From Candidatus Hydrogenedentota bacterium (GTDB lineage Bacteria; Hydrogenedentota; Hydrogenedentia; Hydrogenedentales; SLHB01), in assembly GCA_034408725.1 (NCBI GenBank), contig JAWXCN010000015.1, positions 1 through 45,856 of the forward strand: a DNA stretch of 45,856 nt. The letters run 5' to 3'. Each line of letters begins with the position of its first letter. Within the stretch, counting starts at the first letter, position 1. The notes under the pieces are model-generated. The model ran no database searches. It saw only the letters and a program-made list of their open reading frames with translations, and was not told the origin of the DNA. The position numbers and the translations under genes were made by a program. This document shows positions 268 to 10,957 of this stretch, one piece after another.

Positions 268-379
268 GTTGTATATAGAACGACTCTTATGCGCATCTTA
301 TTTCAATTATTTTCGGGTTAGCGCAGAATTTTTCCTCGAACAGATATAAACCAAAAAACAGCAATGTTTTAGAACGAAT

Positions 380-417
380 AAAAAAATTGCCACGCCCCCG
401 GTGCATGGGGCGCAGCA
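380..417 (-). terminator. Intrinsic terminator of the DUF2946-DUF1559 unit
   Basis: Minus strand UGCUGCGCCCC...GGGGCGUGGCA stem, then one A and U7, 40 nt past the stop at 458. Confidence 0.8.
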
Positions 418-457: not shown

Positions 458-1345
458 TCAGTGCTCATGTCCATGCGAGGCTTCGTGCAAAATCAACCCG
501 CCTTCGTTCACCGGAAACGGCGCGCCCATCGCGCCGCCGTATTTCAGGAACTCGACGTGACCATCCATGTACAACACGTTGCAGCCGCCCGGCGCATGAT
601 TGAAATGGCTCGTTTCATCGCTGATCTCATCCCAGAAAATTGGTAAGGATGATTGTGACGAAGAACTCCGCGTGGGGTCGTTTATGTCCGTGATGAAGAA
701 CCGTTCAATCCCTTCCCGGAGCCGCGGAAAGCTGGTGCGCCCTCCGACCGGCACAGGTAACTCCCAATCTTCGTTCACGAGCGCGGCGTCGCCTGCTTCG
801 ATCCCTTCAATGAGACTTTCGAGTCCCGCCTCGAAGTTCGCAAGGTCACCAGCACTCGCAAATTCGGAGTCGAGCACGCCGGGCGAAATGGCCCAAGCCA
901 TATAGACATAGGGATGTTCGCATAGCTCGCAAGGTTCAACTACGCCGTTGTTCGAGAATCCTGGGGTTTCTTCCCAATTGAATGACGGCGTGTTTCCCTC
1001 GTCCCAGAGCTCGAGGGCCGAGCTTCCCGCGACGGAACTCGGGCACACCAGCACGTCCAGGTCCGTAAGATATTCGGGGTACAAGTAACTCGCCTCGAAT
1101 ATCTGGTTCCAATACTGGATTTCGCCGGCGCAGTTCATCACCTTTTGCGCGGGCAACAATCCTCCTTTGCTTTCCGAAGAGTACATTTTGAATACGAGTC
1201 CGAGCTGTTTCAGATTGTTCTGGCAACTCGCGCGGCGGGCCGCTTCGCGGGCCCGGGCTAGCGCGGGCAACAGGATCGCCGCCAGAATTCCAATAATCGC
1301 AATTACAACCAATAACTCGATAAGGGTAAATCCACGATATTTCAT
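458..1345 (-). CDS. Prepilin-type N-terminal cleavage/methylation protein, DUF1559 / H-X9-DG family
   Basis: RG^[57 protein letters not shown]-terminal tail HEASHGHEH. Confidence 0.92.
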
Positions 1346-1354
1346 GGCTTAATC

Positions 1355-1455
1355 CGCTCCATAATTCGCAGTGAACAATTGAAAGATCGTCCGCATAAAC
1401 GCACAAGCGCCACCGGACACAACGGGGGACTGGAATCTAATCGCGAATTAGAGCG
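1355..1455 (-). promoter_or_regulatory. Anti-SD helix: leader-ORF stop region pairs with the SD of the DUF1559 gene
   Basis: mRNA CGCUC-UAAUUCGC (1455-1443) is complementary to GCGAAUUA-UG-GAGCG (1369-1355), which contains the GGAG SD; 13 bp with a 2-nt bulge. Confidence 0.65.
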
Positions 1456-1798
1456 ATGGAGGGCCGCGACGCAAGTGCGTGAAACAGGACGTGTCCCGCA
1501 CCGGAGGCGAAAGCTGAAGCGCAAGATGATAGCGGTGTTCATCCGCGGGGGGAGCGGGGACGTAATGGTGCGCCGTGACCAGGGCAGGTGTGCCGGCCAG
1601 CACGCACAATGCGCATTCGTGGTTGGTTTCATGCGACTGGTGGGATTCGGCGTCCGCGTGCGCCGCGGCGTGATGCGGGCCCAGCAGTGCTTCATGGCCT
1701 TCGGCGGCGGCGAGAAACGCCACCGCAGCCCATGCCACGGCGCGCAGCACCCGCCGCTGGAAAAGCAACGAAAACCAATGTGGGGTATATCGCGTCAC
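1448..1798 (-). CDS. DUF2946-like (CruR/CutF-type) leader, putative arrest peptide
   Basis: GTG start, hydrophobic N-region, His-rich segment, HECALC (CxxC), Pro-rich linker, C-terminal RRGPPSL*. Confidence 0.8.
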   Translation of the reverse strand: MTRYTPHWFSLLFQRRVLRAVAWAAVAFLAAAEGHEALLGPHHAAAHADAESHQSHETNHECALCVLAGTPALVTAHHYVPAPPADEHRYHLALQLSPPVRDTSCFTHLRRGPPSL

Positions 1799-1838
1799 GG
1801 GATCAGCCTTTGGCGCACAGGAACTCGAACAAGGAACA

Positions 1839-1867
1839 AGAATACGTTAGCCGGGGTTATTCGTCAA
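1839..1867 (-). promoter_or_regulatory. Sigma70-type promoter for the leader ORF
   Basis: TTGACG-17 nt-TATTCT on the minus strand. Confidence 0.6.
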
Positions 1868-1951: not shown

Positions 1952-2344
1952 ATGCATGATTTGACGAACTTACTGGCGCAAATGCATTCCATGATGAACG
2001 ATTTGCACGGACAAGCCCCATTCGATCAACTTCGGGGGGCAACTTGGCAACCCCCCGTTGACATCTATGAAACGGAGGAACGCATCACCATCGTGGCGGA
2101 ACTTCCCGGTGTCGAGAAGCAGAACATCGACGTCGAAGTAGTAGAAGGCATCCTGCGCATTAGCGGTGTAAAACATCGGACCATACCCGAATTGACCAGC
2201 CACGTGTATCAGATGGAAGTGCCATACGGGCCGTTCGCGCGCTTTGTGAGGTTGCCCTGCGCGGTGGACGTCGAACATATCGACGCCGAATACCGCGACG
2301 GATACCTGACCGTGTGTGTACCGCGAGGCAAACGCAATGGCTAA
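1952..2344 (+). CDS. Hsp20/alpha-crystallin small heat-shock protein
   Basis: WQPPVDIYET, ELPGVEKQNIDV, YGPFARFVRLP, AEYRDGYL; AAGGTG SD before ATG 1952; overlaps the lon start. Confidence 0.92.
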   Translation: MHDLTNLLAQMHSMMNDLHGQAPFDQLRGATWQPPVDIYETEERITIVAELPGVEKQNIDVEVVEGILRISGVKHRTIPELTSHVYQMEVPYGPFARFVRLPCAVDVEHIDAEYRDGYLTVCVPRGKRNG

Positions 2345-4793
2345 CGGAAAGAAAGCAGCGGCTAACGGAAAAAAAGTAGCAGCTAATGGAAAGAAAGCAG
2401 CGGCCGAGCAGGGCATCAGCCTGCCGGATACTCCCGCCACCCTGCCGTTGCTCATCAGCAACATGGTGCTGTTCCCCATGTCCGTCGTGCCGCTCCGGAT
2501 TACCGATTCCGCGGACGTGAAACTTATCGACCACGCGGTGATGGGGTCGAAAATGCTGGCCTTTATCGCGCGAAAGCCGACGACCGACGCCACCGGCGTT
2601 GACGCGGCATTCAACGTTGGATGCGTGGGCCGTATCATGCAATTGCAGCGGTTGCCCGATGGCTCGCTGAACGTCGTGTTGCAGGCGTTGCGCCGGTTCC
2701 GCATCGGAGGCGTTGTACAGCGCGAACCGTTTCCCGTCGTGAAAGTCACGCTGCTGGAAGAACGCAAGTACGATAAGAAAAAAATCGGGCCGCTTGTCGC
2801 CACCGTGAAAATGCAAATGGCGCGGTTGATCACCTTGTCTCCGGACATCCCCGACGCCGCTTCGGGCGTGTTGGACAATATTGACGACCCGGGTTTTCTG
2901 GCCGATCTCATCGCAAGCAATCTGAGCATTTCGATTGAGGAAAAGCAGCAGTTGCTGGATACGATAGACCGCACCAAACGGCTGGACCGGTTGACGTTTT
3001 TGCTGGCGCGCGAAGTTGAGATGATGGAGTTGTCGGACAAAATCCGCAATGACGTGCGCAGCTCCATCGACAAGACCCAGCGCGAATATTTCCTGCGACA
3101 GCAAATGAAGGCCATTCAAGATGAACTTGGGGAAGGCGAAGGCGACCGAACAGAAGCATCCGAGTTCCGTAAAAAAATCACCGCATTGGAGCTAAACGCC
3201 GACGTAAAAAAAGAAATCATGCGCGAACTTGACCGGTTCGAGAGCATGAATCCCGCTGGCGCCGAGTATCACGTGCTCGCAACGTATCTGGACTGGGTCG
3301 TTGAACTGCCGTGGAACGCCGTCGCCTATGGCGAAATCGATATTGCGCGCGCGGAACGCATCCTGAACCAGGACCATTACGGCCTTGACCGGGTGAAGCG
3401 CCGCATCCTTGAACATCTCGCCGTGCGAAAACTCAAACCCGACGCGTCAGGCGCGATCATTTGTTTCGTTGGCCCGCCGGGCGTCGGCAAGACTTCGCTC
3501 GGACAGTCCATCGCCCGCGCGCTGGACCGGAAATTTGTGCGGATGTCGCTCGGCGGAATGCGTGACGAAGCGGAAATCCGGGGCCATCGCAAAACGTACA
3601 TCGGCGCAATGCCGGGCCGCATCATCCAACTGATTCGCAAGGCAGGCACGCGAAGCCCCGTGTTCATGCTGGACGAAATCGACAAACTTGGGAATGATTT
3701 CCGCGGCGATCCGTCGTCAGCATTACTCGAGGTGCTCGATCCCGCGCAAAACAGCACGTTTTCGGATTTATATTTGAACGTTCCCTTTGATCTGTCGGAT
3801 GTCATGTTCGTGGCGACCGCGAACATGCTGGACACCATCCCGTGGGCGTTGCGTGATCGCATGGAAGTCATCGAGATTCCCGGCTATACCGTCGAGGAAA
3901 AACTGAATATCGCGCGGAAATACCTCGTGCCGCGCCAACTCGAGGCCCACGGGATTCCGAAGGGCAAGCTGATGTTTTCCGCGCCGATACTTCGCTACAT
4001 CATCACGCGGTACACGCGCGAAGCAGGGGTGCGTAATCTCGACCGCGAGATCGCGAACGTGTGCCGCGGGTGCGCGCGCTCATTCGCGGAAGGCCGTCGA
4101 AAACCGATCACGATCTCGCTCGCGGACATCTCGACGTATCTTGGCAATCCGAGGGTGCGGCCGGAAACCGCTGAACGCACCCGCATCCCCGGCGTGTCAA
4201 CGGGTCTCGCCTGGACGGCGGTAGGCGGAGACATCCTGTTCGTCGAGGCAACGCGCATGCCGGGCAAGGGGAACCTTGTCCTAACTGGCCAGCTTGGCGA
4301 CGTGATGAAAGAATCGGCGCAGGCAGTGTTGAGCTATGTGCGCGCAAACTCACATGCGTTGGGCATCGAAGATTCGTTGTTCACCTCGTCGGACATTCAC
4401 ATCCACGTACCCGCGGGCGCGGTCCCGAAAGACGGACCCAGCGCCGGCGTCACGATTCTCACCGCGGTGGCGTCGCTCCTGACGGGCAAACGCGTGAAGG
4501 ACAGCCTTGCCATGACAGGCGAGATTACGTTGCGCGGGCTCGTGTTGCCCGTCGGTGGCGTCAAGGAGAAGGTGCTCGCTGCCGCGCGCGCGGGCATTCG
4601 CGAAATCGTCTTGCCGGCCGCGTGCGAACCCGATCTGATCGACGTTCCGGCATCCGCGCGCGACAAACTTACGTTTCACTTCGTGAACCGAATGGAGGAG
4701 GTGCTGGCTATCGCGCTGGGGCTTCAACCCATCGTCAGCACCAATGGCCGCAAGAAAGCGCACGCGAAAAGCGCGGCGGTGAGCGCGCGGTAA
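2337..4793 (+). CDS. lon: ATP-dependent protease La
   Basis: Walker A GPPGVGKTS, RKTYIGAMPG, catalytic PKDGPSAG, GGVKEK. Confidence 0.97.
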   Translation: MANGKKAAANGKKVAANGKKAAAEQGISLPDTPATLPLLISNMVLFPMSVVPLRITDSADVKLIDHAVMGSKMLAFIARKPTTDATGVDAAFNVGCVGRIMQLQRLPDGSLNVVLQALRRFRIGGVVQREPFPVVKVTLLEERKYDKKKIGPLVATVKMQMARLITLSPDIPDAASGVLDNIDDPGFLADLIASNLSISIEEKQQLLDTIDRTKRLDRLTFLLAREVEMMELSDKIRNDVRSSIDKTQREYFLRQQMKAIQDELGEGEGDRTEASEFRKKITALELNADVKKEIMRELDRFESMNPAGAEYHVLATYLDWVVELPWNAVAYGEIDIARAERILNQDHYGLDRVKRRILEHLAVRKLKPDASGAIICFVGPPGVGKTSLGQSIARALDRKFVRMSLGGMRDEAEIRGHRKTYIGAMPGRIIQLIRKAGTRSPVFMLDEIDKLGNDFRGDPSSALLEVLDPAQNSTFSDLYLNVPFDLSDVMFVATANMLDTIPWALRDRMEVIEIPGYTVEEKLNIARKYLVPRQLEAHGIPKGKLMFSAPILRYIITRYTREAGVRNLDREIANVCRGCARSFAEGRRKPITISLADISTYLGNPRVRPETAERTRIPGVSTGLAWTAVGGDILFVEATRMPGKGNLVLTGQLGDVMKESAQAVLSYVRANSHALGIEDSLFTSSDIHIHVPAGAVPKDGPSAGVTILTAVASLLTGKRVKDSLAMTGEITLRGLVLPVGGVKEKVLAAARAGIREIVLPAACEPDLIDVPASARDKLTFHFVNRMEEVLAIALGLQPIVSTNGRKKAHAKSAAVSAR
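2340..2402 (+). repeat. 3 x 21-bp coding tandem repeat (ANGKK[A/V]A) at the Lon N-terminus
   Basis: gctaacggaaagaaagcagcg / gctaacggaaaaaaagtagca / gctaatggaaagaaagcagcg. Confidence 0.9.
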
Positions 4794-8259: not shown

Positions 8260-8814
8260 TTACTTTTGCCCTGTCGTCAAAAAGCGTTCCGCGTTTTTCC
8301 ACAAACAATCCAGTTGATCTTCCGTATAGTGTTCCGGCATTGCTACCAATTGCGCGCCGGGGTTCGCAAAATGTGTCGCAAGCCGTTGCACCGCGACCCG
8401 CATGACTTTCGCATGATCAAACGCCAGCGGCGGCAATTTATTTACGGGCATCCATTCCGCGTGCCGCGCGTCGTCGCCGGGACGCAATGGATGTTCCTTG
8501 AAGTCTATCACCGCGATGTAGACCACCGTCACGCACCAACCTCGCGGATCGCGCCCCGGATCGCCAATTGCGAAAACCTGCCGCAATGAAACGTTCTGAA
8601 GCCCTGTTTCCTCGAACAACTCCCGCGCCCCTGCTTTGTCGACCGGCTCATCCTCGTCCACCCACCCCCCGGGCAACGCCCAATCACCCTCGAATGGTCC
8701 GTGGCCTCGTTCGATCAGCAGCACGTGCAGCGCACCGTCGCGCAGGGTAAACACGGCGGAATCCGCCGCGAGAATCGGCCGCGGATAGGGATAGGTGTAG
8801 TGTCGTTCACTCAT
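8260..8814 (-). CDS. NUDIX hydrolase (ADP-ribose pyrophosphatase / NrtR-like N-domain)
   Basis: Intact Nudix box GWVDEDEPVDKAGARELFEETGL, RDPRG, LAFDH; first gene of the pncA-pncB unit. Confidence 0.9.
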   Translation of the reverse strand: MSERHYTYPYPRPILAADSAVFTLRDGALHVLLIERGHGPFEGDWALPGGWVDEDEPVDKAGARELFEETGLQNVSLRQVFAIGDPGRDPRGWCVTVVYIAVIDFKEHPLRPGDDARHAEWMPVNKLPPLAFDHAKVMRVAVQRLATHFANPGAQLVAMPEHYTEDQLDCLWKNAERFLTTGQK

Positions 8815-8915
8815 GGCTCCATCATAGCCGAATTAGTGCATATGTCATCGGTCATTGCGCGTCGGAAATAAAAATGGTGCGATAGAGTCCCCGGTGCAAC
8901 ATTATATGATGGGGC

Positions 8916-9061
8916 CTATTTGGACTGCGGCGGCCCCCAAGGCGCCGCTTTGGCTGTTTATCACAGTTGGTCTACCCTTGCCATGCGCGCACAAAGCCGT
9001 TGCCCCTAAACAGCCAAAGCGGTGTCTACGCTACCCGCTTTCGCCACCGCAGTCCAAATAG
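8916..9061. repeat. REPIN/MITE-like element, family A copy 1
   Basis: 15-bp terminal IR CTATTTGGACTGCGG and 16-bp inner IR CCGCTTTGGCTGTTTA; inverted copy at 26955-27102. Confidence 0.85.
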
Positions 9062-9078
9062 CGCACTTTGCAAAGGCG

Positions 9079-9198
9079 TTGGAGTGCGACAGCGGTAGCT
9101 GCCGCTTTGCATTCGGAGACTTCCAGCACTTCGTATCACCCGCATAGGGCAAGGCTAACAACCGCCCCATAGCGGTAGCTACCGCTACCGCACTCCAA
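9079..9198. repeat. REP pair, family B (TTGGAGTGCG...CGCACTCCAA)
   Basis: 10-bp terminal IR; each arm carries an AGCGGTAGCT(G/A)CCGCT hairpin. Confidence 0.75.
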
Positions 9199-9262
9199 GG
9201 CTTCGCGCGGACTCAACGTAGTTTGCTTTGCCTGGCGCGGGTTGCGGTGATACGCTCCGGGG

Positions 9263-10957
9263 ATGGGAGAAATTAATCACCGCGTGCGGCTTGCGTTGCT
9301 GTTGGCGGTCCCATTTGTCGCGTTAATGCTGCTCGTGCCGCCGCGCGGCGATTTCCCGCTGAACGACGACTGGGTCTACGCGAAAATGGTGCAGGCGCTG
9401 GCCGAGGATGGGCACATCGGGTTCTCGCCGTTGAGCAATGCTTTCGCAATCACGCAAACGCTGTATGCAGCGCCCTTGGTCAAACTCTTCGGTTTCAGTT
9501 TTACACTGCTTCGGCTCACCACGATTTTCATGGCATGGGTCACCGTCTGCACCGTCGCGTTTACGGCGCGTGAACTTGGCCTGCCCAATCGCAGCGCGTT
9601 GCTCGCGGGGCTGACGGTGCTCGTCAATCCGTTGTTCATCAACCTGTCGTACACGTTCATGACCGATGTGCCGTTCTGCGCGTTTGCTTCGATCAGCACG
9701 TATTATTTTGTGAAGGCGCTGCGCACGCCGCTAACGCGATATTTGCTGCTTGGGACATTGTTTTCGATAGCGGCGTTTTACAATCGGCAGTTGGGGGTGT
9801 TGATTCCGTTTGCATTTGTGGCGGTCGCGCTAATGAATTGGTCGAAATCCCGTTCGTACTTCGCTATTCAATATTTTGGGGTACTCCTGGTCCCTTGGAT
9901 TTTGGCATTTGGAACTATTTTTCTTTTAAACGTGCCGGAATCCGAACAAATCGTCCCTAAATTACGTGGTGGACGTTTTTCGGGTCTGGAGCTTGTCATT
10001 TCATTTTTATTGGGTGCCGCAGCTACTTTTTTCTATATTGGAACCATGGTTGCGCCGCTTGGCTACGCAGCGAATGCAAGATTGCTTGCATTGCCGAATC
10101 GCGAGCCACGAATTTACCTAACAAAAGTGGTTTTCGCGTCATTACTACTGTCAGTTTTTGCACTGGCGTGGCTGATCGTCAGGGATTTTCAACTGGTTGT
10201 TCCAATTCTTCGGTTAAATGAGGACGTCGGCGTTGGCGTTGTTGCATTTTCTTTTTTGCGCCCCAGCGATCCACTTACGTGGCTTCCGGTACAAGTCACG
10301 TTTCGCTTGCCTCGATTGGTCCTTTTTGTCTTGTGTTTTTTGGTTTGTACACCATCTGTAATTGTCGTCACTGCAATTTTCGGGCGATTACGCTCAGGGA
10401 TTTCCATCCGCGCGATGCAGCGACAGTTTCTACTTGCTCAGAGCGGTTTGCTCATCCTACTCCCCGCATTCGCAATGACGGGGCCGTATTTTGATCGGTA
10501 TTTTTTAGGAACAATCCATGTGCTGGCCTTACTAGCCGTTACAATACTCGGATATCGGCCGCAGTCAATTCATTTGCGCGCAGCGTCATTTGTCTCGGCC
10601 ATGCTATTCGTTTTCTCGGTGGCTGGCGTTCAAGACTATATGGCTTGGAACACTGCACGATGGCAGGGAATCAAAATTCTGCGGACAAAATATGGCGCTC
10701 ACGATTATCAAATCGATGCCGGATACGAGTTCAACGGCATGTACACAAGCCAAGAGTTCATTCGTCTGTCGCGGACAGAACCATATAAGGTTGAGTACCA
10801 GAAGTGGTGGGTTGTTAACGATACCTATCGCGTTTCGCCAATACGATTGCGACCTAGACTAAACGACGAGATACTTAAGGAAGTCCCCTACTTCTCGTGG
10901 ATGGGCTTTACGACTCGTTATGTCTACCTGTACGGACCGAAGGCGGCTGAGTCCTGA
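9263..10957 (+). CDS. GT-C membrane glycosyltransferase (ArnT/PMT, GT39-like)
   Basis: DFPLNDDWVY, SYTFMTDVPF, RQ motif, FDRY, IDAGYEFNG; many TM segments. Confidence 0.85.
   Translation: MGEINHRVRLALLLAVPFVALMLLVPPRGDFPLNDDWVYAKMVQALAEDGHIGFSPLSNAFAITQTLYAAPLVKLFGFSFTLLRLTTIFMAWVTVCTVAFTARELGLPNRSALLAGLTVLVNPLFINLSYTFMTDVPFCAFASISTYYFVKALRTPLTRYLLLGTLFSIAAFYNRQLGVLIPFAFVAVALMNWSKSRSYFAIQYFGVLLVPWILAFGTIFLLNVPESEQIVPKLRGGRFSGLELVISFLLGAAATFFYIGTMVAPLGYAANARLLALPNREPRIYLTKVVFASLLLSVFALAWLIVRDFQLVVPILRLNEDVGVGVVAFSFLRPSDPLTWLPVQVTFRLPRLVLFVLCFLVCTPSVIVVTAIFGRLRSGISIRAMQRQFLLAQSGLLILLPAFAMTGPYFDRYFLGTIHVLALLAVTILGYRPQSIHLRAASFVSAMLFVFSVAGVQDYMAWNTARWQGIKILRTKYGAHDYQIDAGYEFNGMYTSQEFIRLSRTEPYKVEYQKWWVVNDTYRVSPIRLRPRLNDEILKEVPYFSWMGFTTRYVYLYGPKAAES

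Follow-up and report, generated by a model that had tools for sequence, protein, structure and literature searches.

The first positions of contig JAWXCN010000015.1 of a Candidatus Hydrogenedentota bacterium (assembly GCA_034408725.1, positions 1 to 45,856, the whole of which is called the window here) raise the question of why a reading frame of 116 codons, carrying a CxxC pair and ending almost directly on Arg-Gly-Pro-Pro (RGPP), should precede a prepilin-type gene of the DUF1559 family whose product ends in a histidine-rich tail. We propose that the small frame is the leader of a metal-responsive translational switch of the kind described for CruR and CutF, and that this switch probably gates the His-tailed DUF1559 gene. 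The DUF1559 family is multi-paralogous and without assigned function (PMC2754498, PMC10632474), and two planctomycete species hold 74 and 68 paralogues. The original prediction, which was made from the DNA letters and a list of open reading frames (ORFs), had outlined such a switch as a self-contained unit, and the layout of that unit is as follows.

1839–1867, minus strand: σ70-like promoter, TTGACG – 17 nucleotides – TATTCT, 9 of 12 matches, four of five same-genus loci alike
1448–1798, minus strand: leader ORF of 116 amino acids with GTG start, a candidate arrest peptide of diverged DUF2946 (CruR/CutF-like) type, from the reading frame and a match to PF11162
458–1345, minus strand: DUF1559/prepilin-type gene of 295 amino acids with its ATG at 1345–1343 and a predicted pilin-like fold, from Pfam, NCBIfam and a structure model
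378–417, minus strand: intrinsic-terminator-like hairpin at 417–388 (11 pairs, 8 of them G-C) followed by a T run, from a hairpin scan

Together these elements make up a two-gene cassette on the minus strand between 1867 and 388. The leader, a spacer of 102 nucleotides, the DUF1559 gene and the terminator all lie where the original prediction had placed them. Its promoter is present as well, with TTGAC, a 17-nucleotide interval and a −10-like hexamer aligned at the same-genus loci, but by count it is not above chance, a scan of the region having returned two sites against 1.1 expected from shuffled sequences. The leader is the first gene of the operon, with the promoter-like site upstream of it and an Hsp20/Lon gene pair diverging from it, and no Rfam family matches positions 300–2000 at E ≤ 1. 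Position 1 of the window is the end of the contig, which limits the view of the context past the terminator.

The evidence that carries the proposal begins with the recurrence of the pair. A leader profile matches in 26 of the 54 genomes of the family, and at E ≤ 1e-4 a wider one does so in 77 of the 135 genomes of the phylum. At 26 of 30 places in the family genomes an intact leader is followed, after 87–319 and mostly about 100 nucleotides, by a DUF1559 gene with the prepilin sequence GFTLIELL, which agrees with the presence of the leader upstream of orthologues on which the original prediction depended. Among the remaining four places, two have a stop inside the leader frame and an intact gene, one is cut by a contig end, and one is without such a gene in the 1,488 nucleotides left. 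The stop at the two interrupted places (loci L038 and L039, in genomes G071 and G034) is an in-frame TAA, for which leader decay or assembly error are possible causes. The proteins encoded downstream of the leaders are close orthologues, 48–78% identical, and their tails combine HExxH with His-rich runs of up to HGHGHGHGH.

The converse search started from the C-terminus of the DUF1559 protein and yielded 384 stretches of public genomes encoding relatives, from which 80 loci were kept, mostly from Candidatus Hydrogenedentota. After nine loci without the N-terminus of the gene and four with a truncated or short upstream region had been dropped, 67 were scored for an ORF of at least 60 amino acids ending in R.PP within 450 nucleotides upstream of the DUF1559 gene. 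Such an ORF precedes 26 of the 27 genes with an HExxH tail and four of the 40 others (Fisher p = 2.5e-13, calculated over relatives that are not independent), and the leader is thus tied to the His-tailed subfamily rather than to DUF1559 as a whole. The four leader-bearing genes outside the HExxH class end in HKATHSQHDH, HIASHYGHDHP, HRSNHMLNGTTMH and MGMGGHH. Under a stricter CxxC pattern six tailed genes appear leaderless, and five of these six carry C-x4-C-P-F. This leader variant, found at L098, L100, L104, L105 and L113, has HHH(H) and then C-x4-C-P-F where CxxC would stand, and ends in R[AG]PP 70–191 nucleotides before a His-tailed DUF1559 gene.

The same selectivity is seen within a single genome. 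The genome of the window contains 17 Pfam matches to DUF1559 and 30 ORFs with a prepilin motif, of which two have HExxH tails, one in the window and one on contig C113, both with a leader. The second cassette (locus L003, about 8,670–10,051 on the minus strand of C113) has a leader with a Cys-rich N-terminal part (LVPGMCATL...SCCATQC), CAFC and RDPP, and its DUF1559 gene starts with GTG about 105 nucleotides after the leader and ends in HELAHGDGHGH. Leaders of this type also occur in the relatives L046 and L109 and as a second ORF in L006. Side-by-side duplicates of the cassette were seen as a tandem pair in genome G001 (L017/L043, contig C2:39548-42117) and as a divergent pair in G002 (L006 and L018, contig C80:16875-17808).

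The leader itself, read from the GTG at 1798, is MTRYTPHWFSLLFQRRVLRAVAWAAVAFLAAAEGHEALLGPHH...NHECALCVLAG...CFTHLRRGPPSL; its C-terminus reads LRRGPPSL, its stop codon is at 1450–1448, and its sequence can be divided into the following parts.

1706–1750, minus strand: predicted hydrophobic export or anchor segment VLRAVAWAAVAFLAA, residues 17–31, after two Arg (mean Kyte-Doolittle value of the 15-mer 2.01)
1619–1696, minus strand: His-rich stretch, residues 35–60, with seven His between the hydrophobic segment and CxxC, from the translation
1604–1615, minus strand: CALC (CxxC), residues 62–65, invariant in 27 of 27 leaders
1457–1468, minus strand: RGPP arrest motif (CGC GGC CCT CCA), residues 111–114 of 116, containing the anti-Shine-Dalgarno word CCUCC

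Orthologous leaders were gathered from related genomes and aligned (n = 27, that of the window included). Invariance is confined to C62, C65, R111, P113 and P114, with H35 and L67 coming close. The gap between CxxC and R.PP is 45 residues in 12 leaders, among them that of the window, and 44 in the other 15; one to eight residues follow the two prolines (two codons precede the stop in the window), and the arrest motif is RGPP in 18 leaders, RAPP and RDPP in four each, and RPPP in one. A crude hydropathy test finds a hydrophobic 15-mer (Kyte-Doolittle mean at least 1.6) preceded by Arg or Lys in 26 of the 27. In A+T-rich relatives (L087 and L092–L095) a strongly hydrophobic stretch of about 25 residues follows CPIC, where a second membrane span is possible.

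These features correspond closely to the published definition of DUF2946 by CXXC and RAPP, with 45 residues between them conserved within one or two, and with RAPP three residues from the C-terminus (PMC9426467). In a survey of such motifs RGPP is the strongest RAPP-like arrest sequence, resistant to EF-P and intrinsically strong; RGPP and RAPP act strongly in many sequence contexts, while RDPP is partially permissive (PMC12992588). The search of the leader against DUF2946 that the original prediction had proposed returned a weak match (PF11162, E = 0.0034, 18.6 bits, profile positions 40–117 of 117), below the curated gathering cut-off of 23.7 bits. PF11162 is matched at E ≤ 0.01 by 21 of the 27 orthologous leaders, best E-value 1.2e-6, and none of them matches any other family. 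When the 27 were made into a profile and run against 1.84 billion proteins, 365 representative clusters came up at E ≤ 0.001; among the 150 best representatives all retain C, C, R, P and P, and 71 match DUF2946 at E ≤ 0.001, best 5.7e-18. Given this profile linkage and the sub-threshold score, the leader is, as judged from its motifs, a diverged relative of CruR and CutF that carries the defining motif combination, and not a member by Pfam's threshold.

That the leader is a small ORF arisen by chance was rejected on the basis of a genome-wide scan. The genome of the window holds 45,331 stop-to-stop frames that reach 60 amino acids or more, and 43 of them end in R[AG]PP plus 0–12 residues. Relaxing the motif to R[AGDSP]PP while requiring a correctly spaced Cys pair gives eight frames, and the only two of these that are coding-like both lie upstream of His-tailed DUF1559 genes.

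The product of the downstream gene combines a pilin-type N-terminus with a candidate metal site, and the parts concerned are these.

1268–1333, minus strand: prepilin cleavage/methylation motif with a hydrophobic helix, invariant among all 25 orthologues
557–598, minus strand: H-X9-DG region (H250 ... D261 G262 H263; TIGR04294), with H250, D261, G262 and H263 invariant
461–487, minus strand: C-terminal HEASHGHEH (HExxH and His tail), with H287, E288 and H291 specific to the leader-associated subfamily

The protein matches Pfam SBP_bac_10 (PF07596, DUF1559) with E = 2.8e-13 and 51 bits against a cut-off of 23.3, the best stretch spanning only the N-terminal 31 profile positions, as well as Pfam N_methyl (3.5e-9, 36.3 bits against 21.2), an NCBIfam prepilin model and NCBIfam H-X9-DG (28.6 bits against 19). 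A model obtained with AlphaFold2 (AF2) has a mean predicted local distance difference test score (pLDDT) of 81.2 and places HEASH (residues 287–291) in a predicted C-terminal helix. Aligned with VIA-align, the top matches of this model are all pilins or pseudopilins, at weak Z-scores of 3.4–5.0; Foldseek against the Protein Data Bank (PDB) gave nothing at E ≤ 0.001, only the N-terminal helix being matched, with E at least 0.69, and the pilin helix is also the only match of a PDB sequence search. The nearest clusters in the ESM Atlas are Hydrogenedentota proteins without a given name. The genome of the window encodes a prepilin peptidase and has 16 matches above cut-off to the T2SSE ATPase, of the kind found in type II secretion systems (T2SS) and type IV pili (T4P).

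When 28 tailed proteins were compared with 39 untailed paralogues, and positions conserved in at least 85% of the former and at most 35% of the latter were retained, K68, L99, L113, W114, D115, S121, V136, E137, E140, E143, H144, P145, L178, W194, H247, N280, G282, G283, H287, E288 and H291 emerged as specific to the tailed class. The His and Glu residues in this signature suggest a structured metal site that would be closed by the C-terminal helix. A zincin protease, considered as an explanation of HExxH, found no support, there being no peptidase family among the Pfam and NCBIfam matches and none among the fold matches of Foldseek and VIA-align; we consider HEASH a putative metal-binding motif and not evidence for a protease.

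The leader and its target also bear on another class of arrest peptide, in which the ribosome would monitor export or disulfide formation in the manner of SecM, ApdA and ApdP. Arrest would then be released by the pull of translocation or by oxidation of CxxC, and impaired export or oxidative folding would induce the pilin-like protein. The N-terminal hydrophobic segment of 26 of the 27 leaders is compatible with such a role, as are the conserved cysteines of the DUF1559 orthologues (C41 and C139 invariant, C72 nearly so) and the occurrence of small ORFs with RAPP or RGPP upstream of sec, DsbA and thioredoxin genes (PMC12992588). The target, however, is no Sec, YidC or Dsb component, the leader groups with the metal-linked DUF2946 leaders, and it co-occurs specifically with the His/Glu-rich signature of the target, all of which makes an export or disulfide monitor improbable.

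The proposed metal-responsive switch further requires a link between the end of the leader and translation of the next gene, for which the mRNA offers the following elements.

1443–1458, minus strand: 5′ arm of a helix predicted to occlude the ribosome-binding site, made up of the last leader codons, the stop and five nucleotides beyond (pair probabilities 0.52–0.73)
1363–1437, minus strand: inner stem-loops of the spacer, inside the outer helix, from the predicted fold
1343–1369, minus strand: 3′ arm region with two alternative partners, including the Shine-Dalgarno (SD) sequence GGAG at 1360–1357 and the ATG at 1345–1343, from the predicted fold

The original prediction had claimed a helix of 13 base pairs between 1455–1443 and 1369–1355. 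The complementarity is real (8 pairs, a bulge of 2 nucleotides and 5 pairs, −17.2 kcal/mol as an isolated duplex). Near-identical words, GCGAAUUA (1369–1362) and GCGGAUUA (1357–1350), flank the SD sequence, and the leader word UAAUUCGC can consequently pair in two registers, one over the SD sequence and the other over the AUG. In the folding model either register would occlude the ribosome-binding site.

Comparison among loci lends this pairing its main support. The probability that the SD sequence pairs with a 42-nucleotide window at the leader end is 0.72 in the window, and it reaches 0.5 or more in 34 of 43 dereplicated loci, with a mean of 0.72, as opposed to six of 34 leaderless DUF1559 controls with a window at equal distance (mean 0.19). 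Across 44 loci dereplicated at 80% identity, duplexes between leader end and ribosome-binding site average −16.6 kcal/mol for cognate and −12.4 kcal/mol for non-cognate pairs, and none of 20000 permutations reaches the cognate mean. The arms themselves vary from locus to locus, for example CUCCUUACACAC/GUGUGUAA..AAGGAG, CACACGUCC/GGACGUGUG plus CUCC/GGAG, and GCUCCUGCUUCCG/CGGAAGCA..GGAGC, and an inner G+C-rich spacer hairpin is present in most relatives. At 19 of the 44 loci R.PP has CCT as its first Pro codon, which yields CCUCC, against a background of 18%. At L087 and L093 the predicted partner of the SD sequence lies outside the leader end.

The spacers, which measure 70–319 and mostly 85–125 nucleotides in the 44 loci, could also serve transcription attenuation of the CruR type: an arrested ribosome would block loading of Rho on the spacer (102 nucleotides in the window), release would lead to termination before the DUF1559 gene, and the helix over the SD sequence would be secondary or absent in vivo. 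Such long intergenic regions are called typical by Roy et al. (PMC9426467), and in its CxxC, 45-residue gap and R[AG]PP the leader has the features of CruR and not those of CutF. Pairing between leader end and ribosome-binding site that is enriched over controls and specific to the locus, as in CutF, speaks against attenuation alone, which we regard as unlikely; Rho-dependent termination is nevertheless compatible with translational gating, and both could act together.

The strict linkage of the two genes and the ligand-rich region of the leader might be taken to mean that the leader persists as a stable, small metal-binding protein of the membrane or periplasm and partners the pilin-like protein, for instance as its chaperone or anchor, with R.PP structural and the RNA pairing incidental. 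Sole invariants C, C, R, P and P at fixed spacing near the C-terminus are instead the signature of an arrest peptide, and neither the bias for CCT at the first Pro codon nor the enriched pairing at the ribosome-binding site would be expected of a stable partner. Furthermore, CutF is reported to escape detection in vivo and to act exclusively in cis (Ozturk et al. 2023), and we consider a stable partner very improbable, more so than either of the two alternatives above.

The metal-responsive switch, as we picture it, would operate as follows. The leader would be exported or anchored in the membrane through its N-terminal hydrophobic segment, and on free mRNA its last codons would pair with the SD/AUG region of the DUF1559 gene 102 nucleotides downstream and block initiation. 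A ribosome covers about 15 nucleotides 3′ of its P site. If arrest is modelled on CruR, the P site being occupied by the codon of Pro113 and the A site by that of Pro114, a P site on CCT 1462–1460 would enclose the mRNA in the ribosome as far as about 1447, and about 12 of the 16 nucleotides of the 5′ arm (1458–1443) would be covered. The helix could then not form, the SD sequence and the AUG would be free, and the His-tailed pilin-like protein would be translated. CxxC would sit 46–49 residues behind the arrest point, just outside the exit tunnel, and metal bound to the nascent CxxC/His region, on its exit from the tunnel or its passage through the membrane, could set the duration of the arrest. 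The positions adopted for the two prolines are those of CruR, in which the third and fourth RAPP codons (Pro3 and Pro4) occupy the P and A sites (PMC12992588), and for which Roy et al. likewise argue that CxxC lies just past the exit tunnel (PMC9426467).

The direction of the response is a finer point. Copper relieves the RAPP arrest of CruR (PMC9426467), and with CruR-like polarity the target would be on at metal scarcity, most likely of copper, and off once metal releases the arrest. We favour this polarity slightly over the opposite one, since R[AG]PP arrests by default, and CxxC with RGPP here, as against CxxxC with PPP in CutF, indicates that the polarity may be opposite to that of CutF.

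Several observations weigh against a metal-responsive switch acting through the helix, or limit how far it can be specified. In addition to the sub-threshold DUF2946 score, the minimum free energy (MFE) fold of the window pairs 1458–1443 with 1357–1343, covering the last SD base, the sequence between SD and start codon, and the AUG, which is not the register of the original prediction but the second one made possible by the words flanking the SD sequence. The fold energy of the window is unexceptional (z = −0.74, 37 of 200 shuffles folding at least as well), and above-chance pairing is therefore a result of the comparative data and not of the window sequence alone. Nor is the helix universal, the pairing probability being below 0.5 in nine of 43 loci. 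Control duplexes within the same loci average −13.9 and −14.3 kcal/mol against the cognate −16.6 kcal/mol (Wilcoxon p = 0.005 and 0.057), and 16 and 19 of the 44 controls reach −15 kcal/mol or lower, compared with 27 of the 44 cognate duplexes. Covariation of the helix, which the original prediction had put forward as a check, is answered in part: pairing is enriched and locus-specific, but alignment of 31 spacers with MAFFT followed by RNAalifold gave no predicted pairs and no consensus structure. The spacers are too diverged to align for a count of covarying pairs, and the support for conservation of the helix is energetic and comparative, not formal covariation. Upstream of one tailed gene, L081, the frame continues into the gene itself and has HRIPP where R.PP would be expected, and all of the statistics were obtained on related genomes, dereplicated at 80% identity only. 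A scan of 25 downstream ORFs at 19 loci (from 43 ORFs in 22 loci) gave no conserved neighbour with a role in the homeostasis of copper or another metal. As to the metal, CxxC suggests Cu(I) but the His-rich leaders and tails fit Ni, Zn or Co too, and polarity is not readable from the sequence because CruR and CutF answer copper in opposite directions.

In the 22 loci the cassette is followed by different, unrelated genes, and the unit thus consists of the two genes alone. The sole metal-uptake-related neighbour seen is at L104 (3468–4636, plus strand), where ExbB and ExbD directly follow the His-tailed DUF1559 gene. On the other side of the cassette in the window, Hsp20 (1919–2344) and the Lon protease (2316–4793) are encoded on the plus strand, the N-terminus of Lon opening with three tandem ANGKK(A/V)A repeats (about 2340–2400), and a relative in genome G003 (L005) has its cassette beside the same Hsp20/Lon pair.

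As regards the wider meaning, DUF2946 leaders such as CruR and CutF are to our knowledge the only nascent-peptide metal sensors described, and their known associations are with copper importers, oxidases and chaperones in Proteobacteria. In the cassette a CruR/CutF-like leader is fixed to one prepilin-type branch of DUF1559 in an uncultured phylum, and the strict link between leader, His/Glu signature and His tail turns metal binding by the tailed branch into a testable hypothesis. The Pro-Pro codons read CCUCC, an anti-SD word, so that arrest motif and putative RNA switch would share nucleotides, and the cassette is a compact natural example of an arrest motif that overlaps an anti-SD arm. 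CruR-like polarity would make the His-tailed DUF1559 protein a pseudopilin for metal capture or delivery. We tentatively raise the possibility, which at present we would doubt more readily than accept, that tailed DUF1559 proteins serve as pseudopilins that capture metal, are matured by the prepilin peptidase, displayed by a T2SS/T4P-like machinery and made only while the leader reports metal scarcity, with the same nucleotides acting as arrest motif and RNA switch. If true, this would be the first function for any of the branches that make up the large DUF1559 family.

The original prediction is confirmed in its anatomy and, within the reach of computation, supported in its interpretation. 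The cassette probably represents a new case of a known kind of switch, that of CruR and CutF, with a class of target, DUF1559, that the papers searched do not discuss for such leaders. No paper naming both DUF1559 and DUF2946 was found in the literature searched; DUF1559 is absent from the main texts of PMC9426467 and PMC12992588, and 'pilin' from the main text of the latter, a survey of the genes that follow small ORFs with RAPP or RGPP. The neighbours of DUF2946 genes in Roy et al. are TonB-dependent transporters, PepSY_TM, ScoC, PCuAC, YcnI, CopC, MbnPH and AhpC, and the same authors mention 'a few' DUF2946 homologues in Planctomycetes (PMC9426467). Ozturk et al. (2023) report efflux, TonB-like, PCuAC and HupE/UreJ proteins next to such leaders, His-only leaders being linked to HupE/UreJ, and a figure legend of that paper includes a 'PILIN' signal class for downstream proteins.

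The closest likeness is to CruR (Bp2923)-bfrG of Bordetella pertussis (PMC9426467), which is exported and shares with the window, where the export signal is a predicted one, a small protein as first operon gene, CxxC, the 45-residue gap, a long spacer and R-A/G-P-P two to three residues before the stop, expression of the gene after CruR being RAPP-dependent. CruR differs in its TonB-dependent transporter target, its read-out by Rho-dependent termination and its proteobacterial host, whereas the window has a His-tailed prepilin-type DUF1559 target, RGPP, a predicted helix over the ribosome-binding site, a Candidatus Hydrogenedentota host and a DUF2946 score below cut-off. CutF-cutO of Rhodobacter capsulatus resembles the window in the predicted mRNA stem-loop masking the next gene's ribosome-binding site, and CutF acts in cis (Ozturk et al. 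2021, 2023; bioRxiv 10.1101/2025.02.05.636593); unlike the leader of the window, it has CxxxC, an EF-P-sensitive PPP, a copper-induced stall and a multicopper oxidase as target. That a stalled ribosome frees the SD sequence and AUG of the next gene is a logic shown for CutF-cutO and for SecM-secA. With ApdA, ApdP and SecM the leader shares R-A/G-P-P, which in the window would likewise lie at the peptidyl-transferase centre, a small upstream ORF with a putative export signal, and a predicted arrest close to the C-terminus that would control the next gene, but these proteins monitor export, control sec or yidC genes and are without a conserved CxxC at fixed distance, whereas the gene downstream of the leader in the window is DUF1559 and not sec or yidC. 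The target, finally, is like the DUF1559/H-X9-DG proteins of Planctomycetes (PF07596, TIGR04294) in its prepilin methylation motif, its DUF1559 N-terminal region and H-X9-DG, and the subfamily to which it belongs is set apart from other DUF1559 proteins by the C-terminal HExxH/His-rich tail, by its specific His and Glu residues and by the leader.

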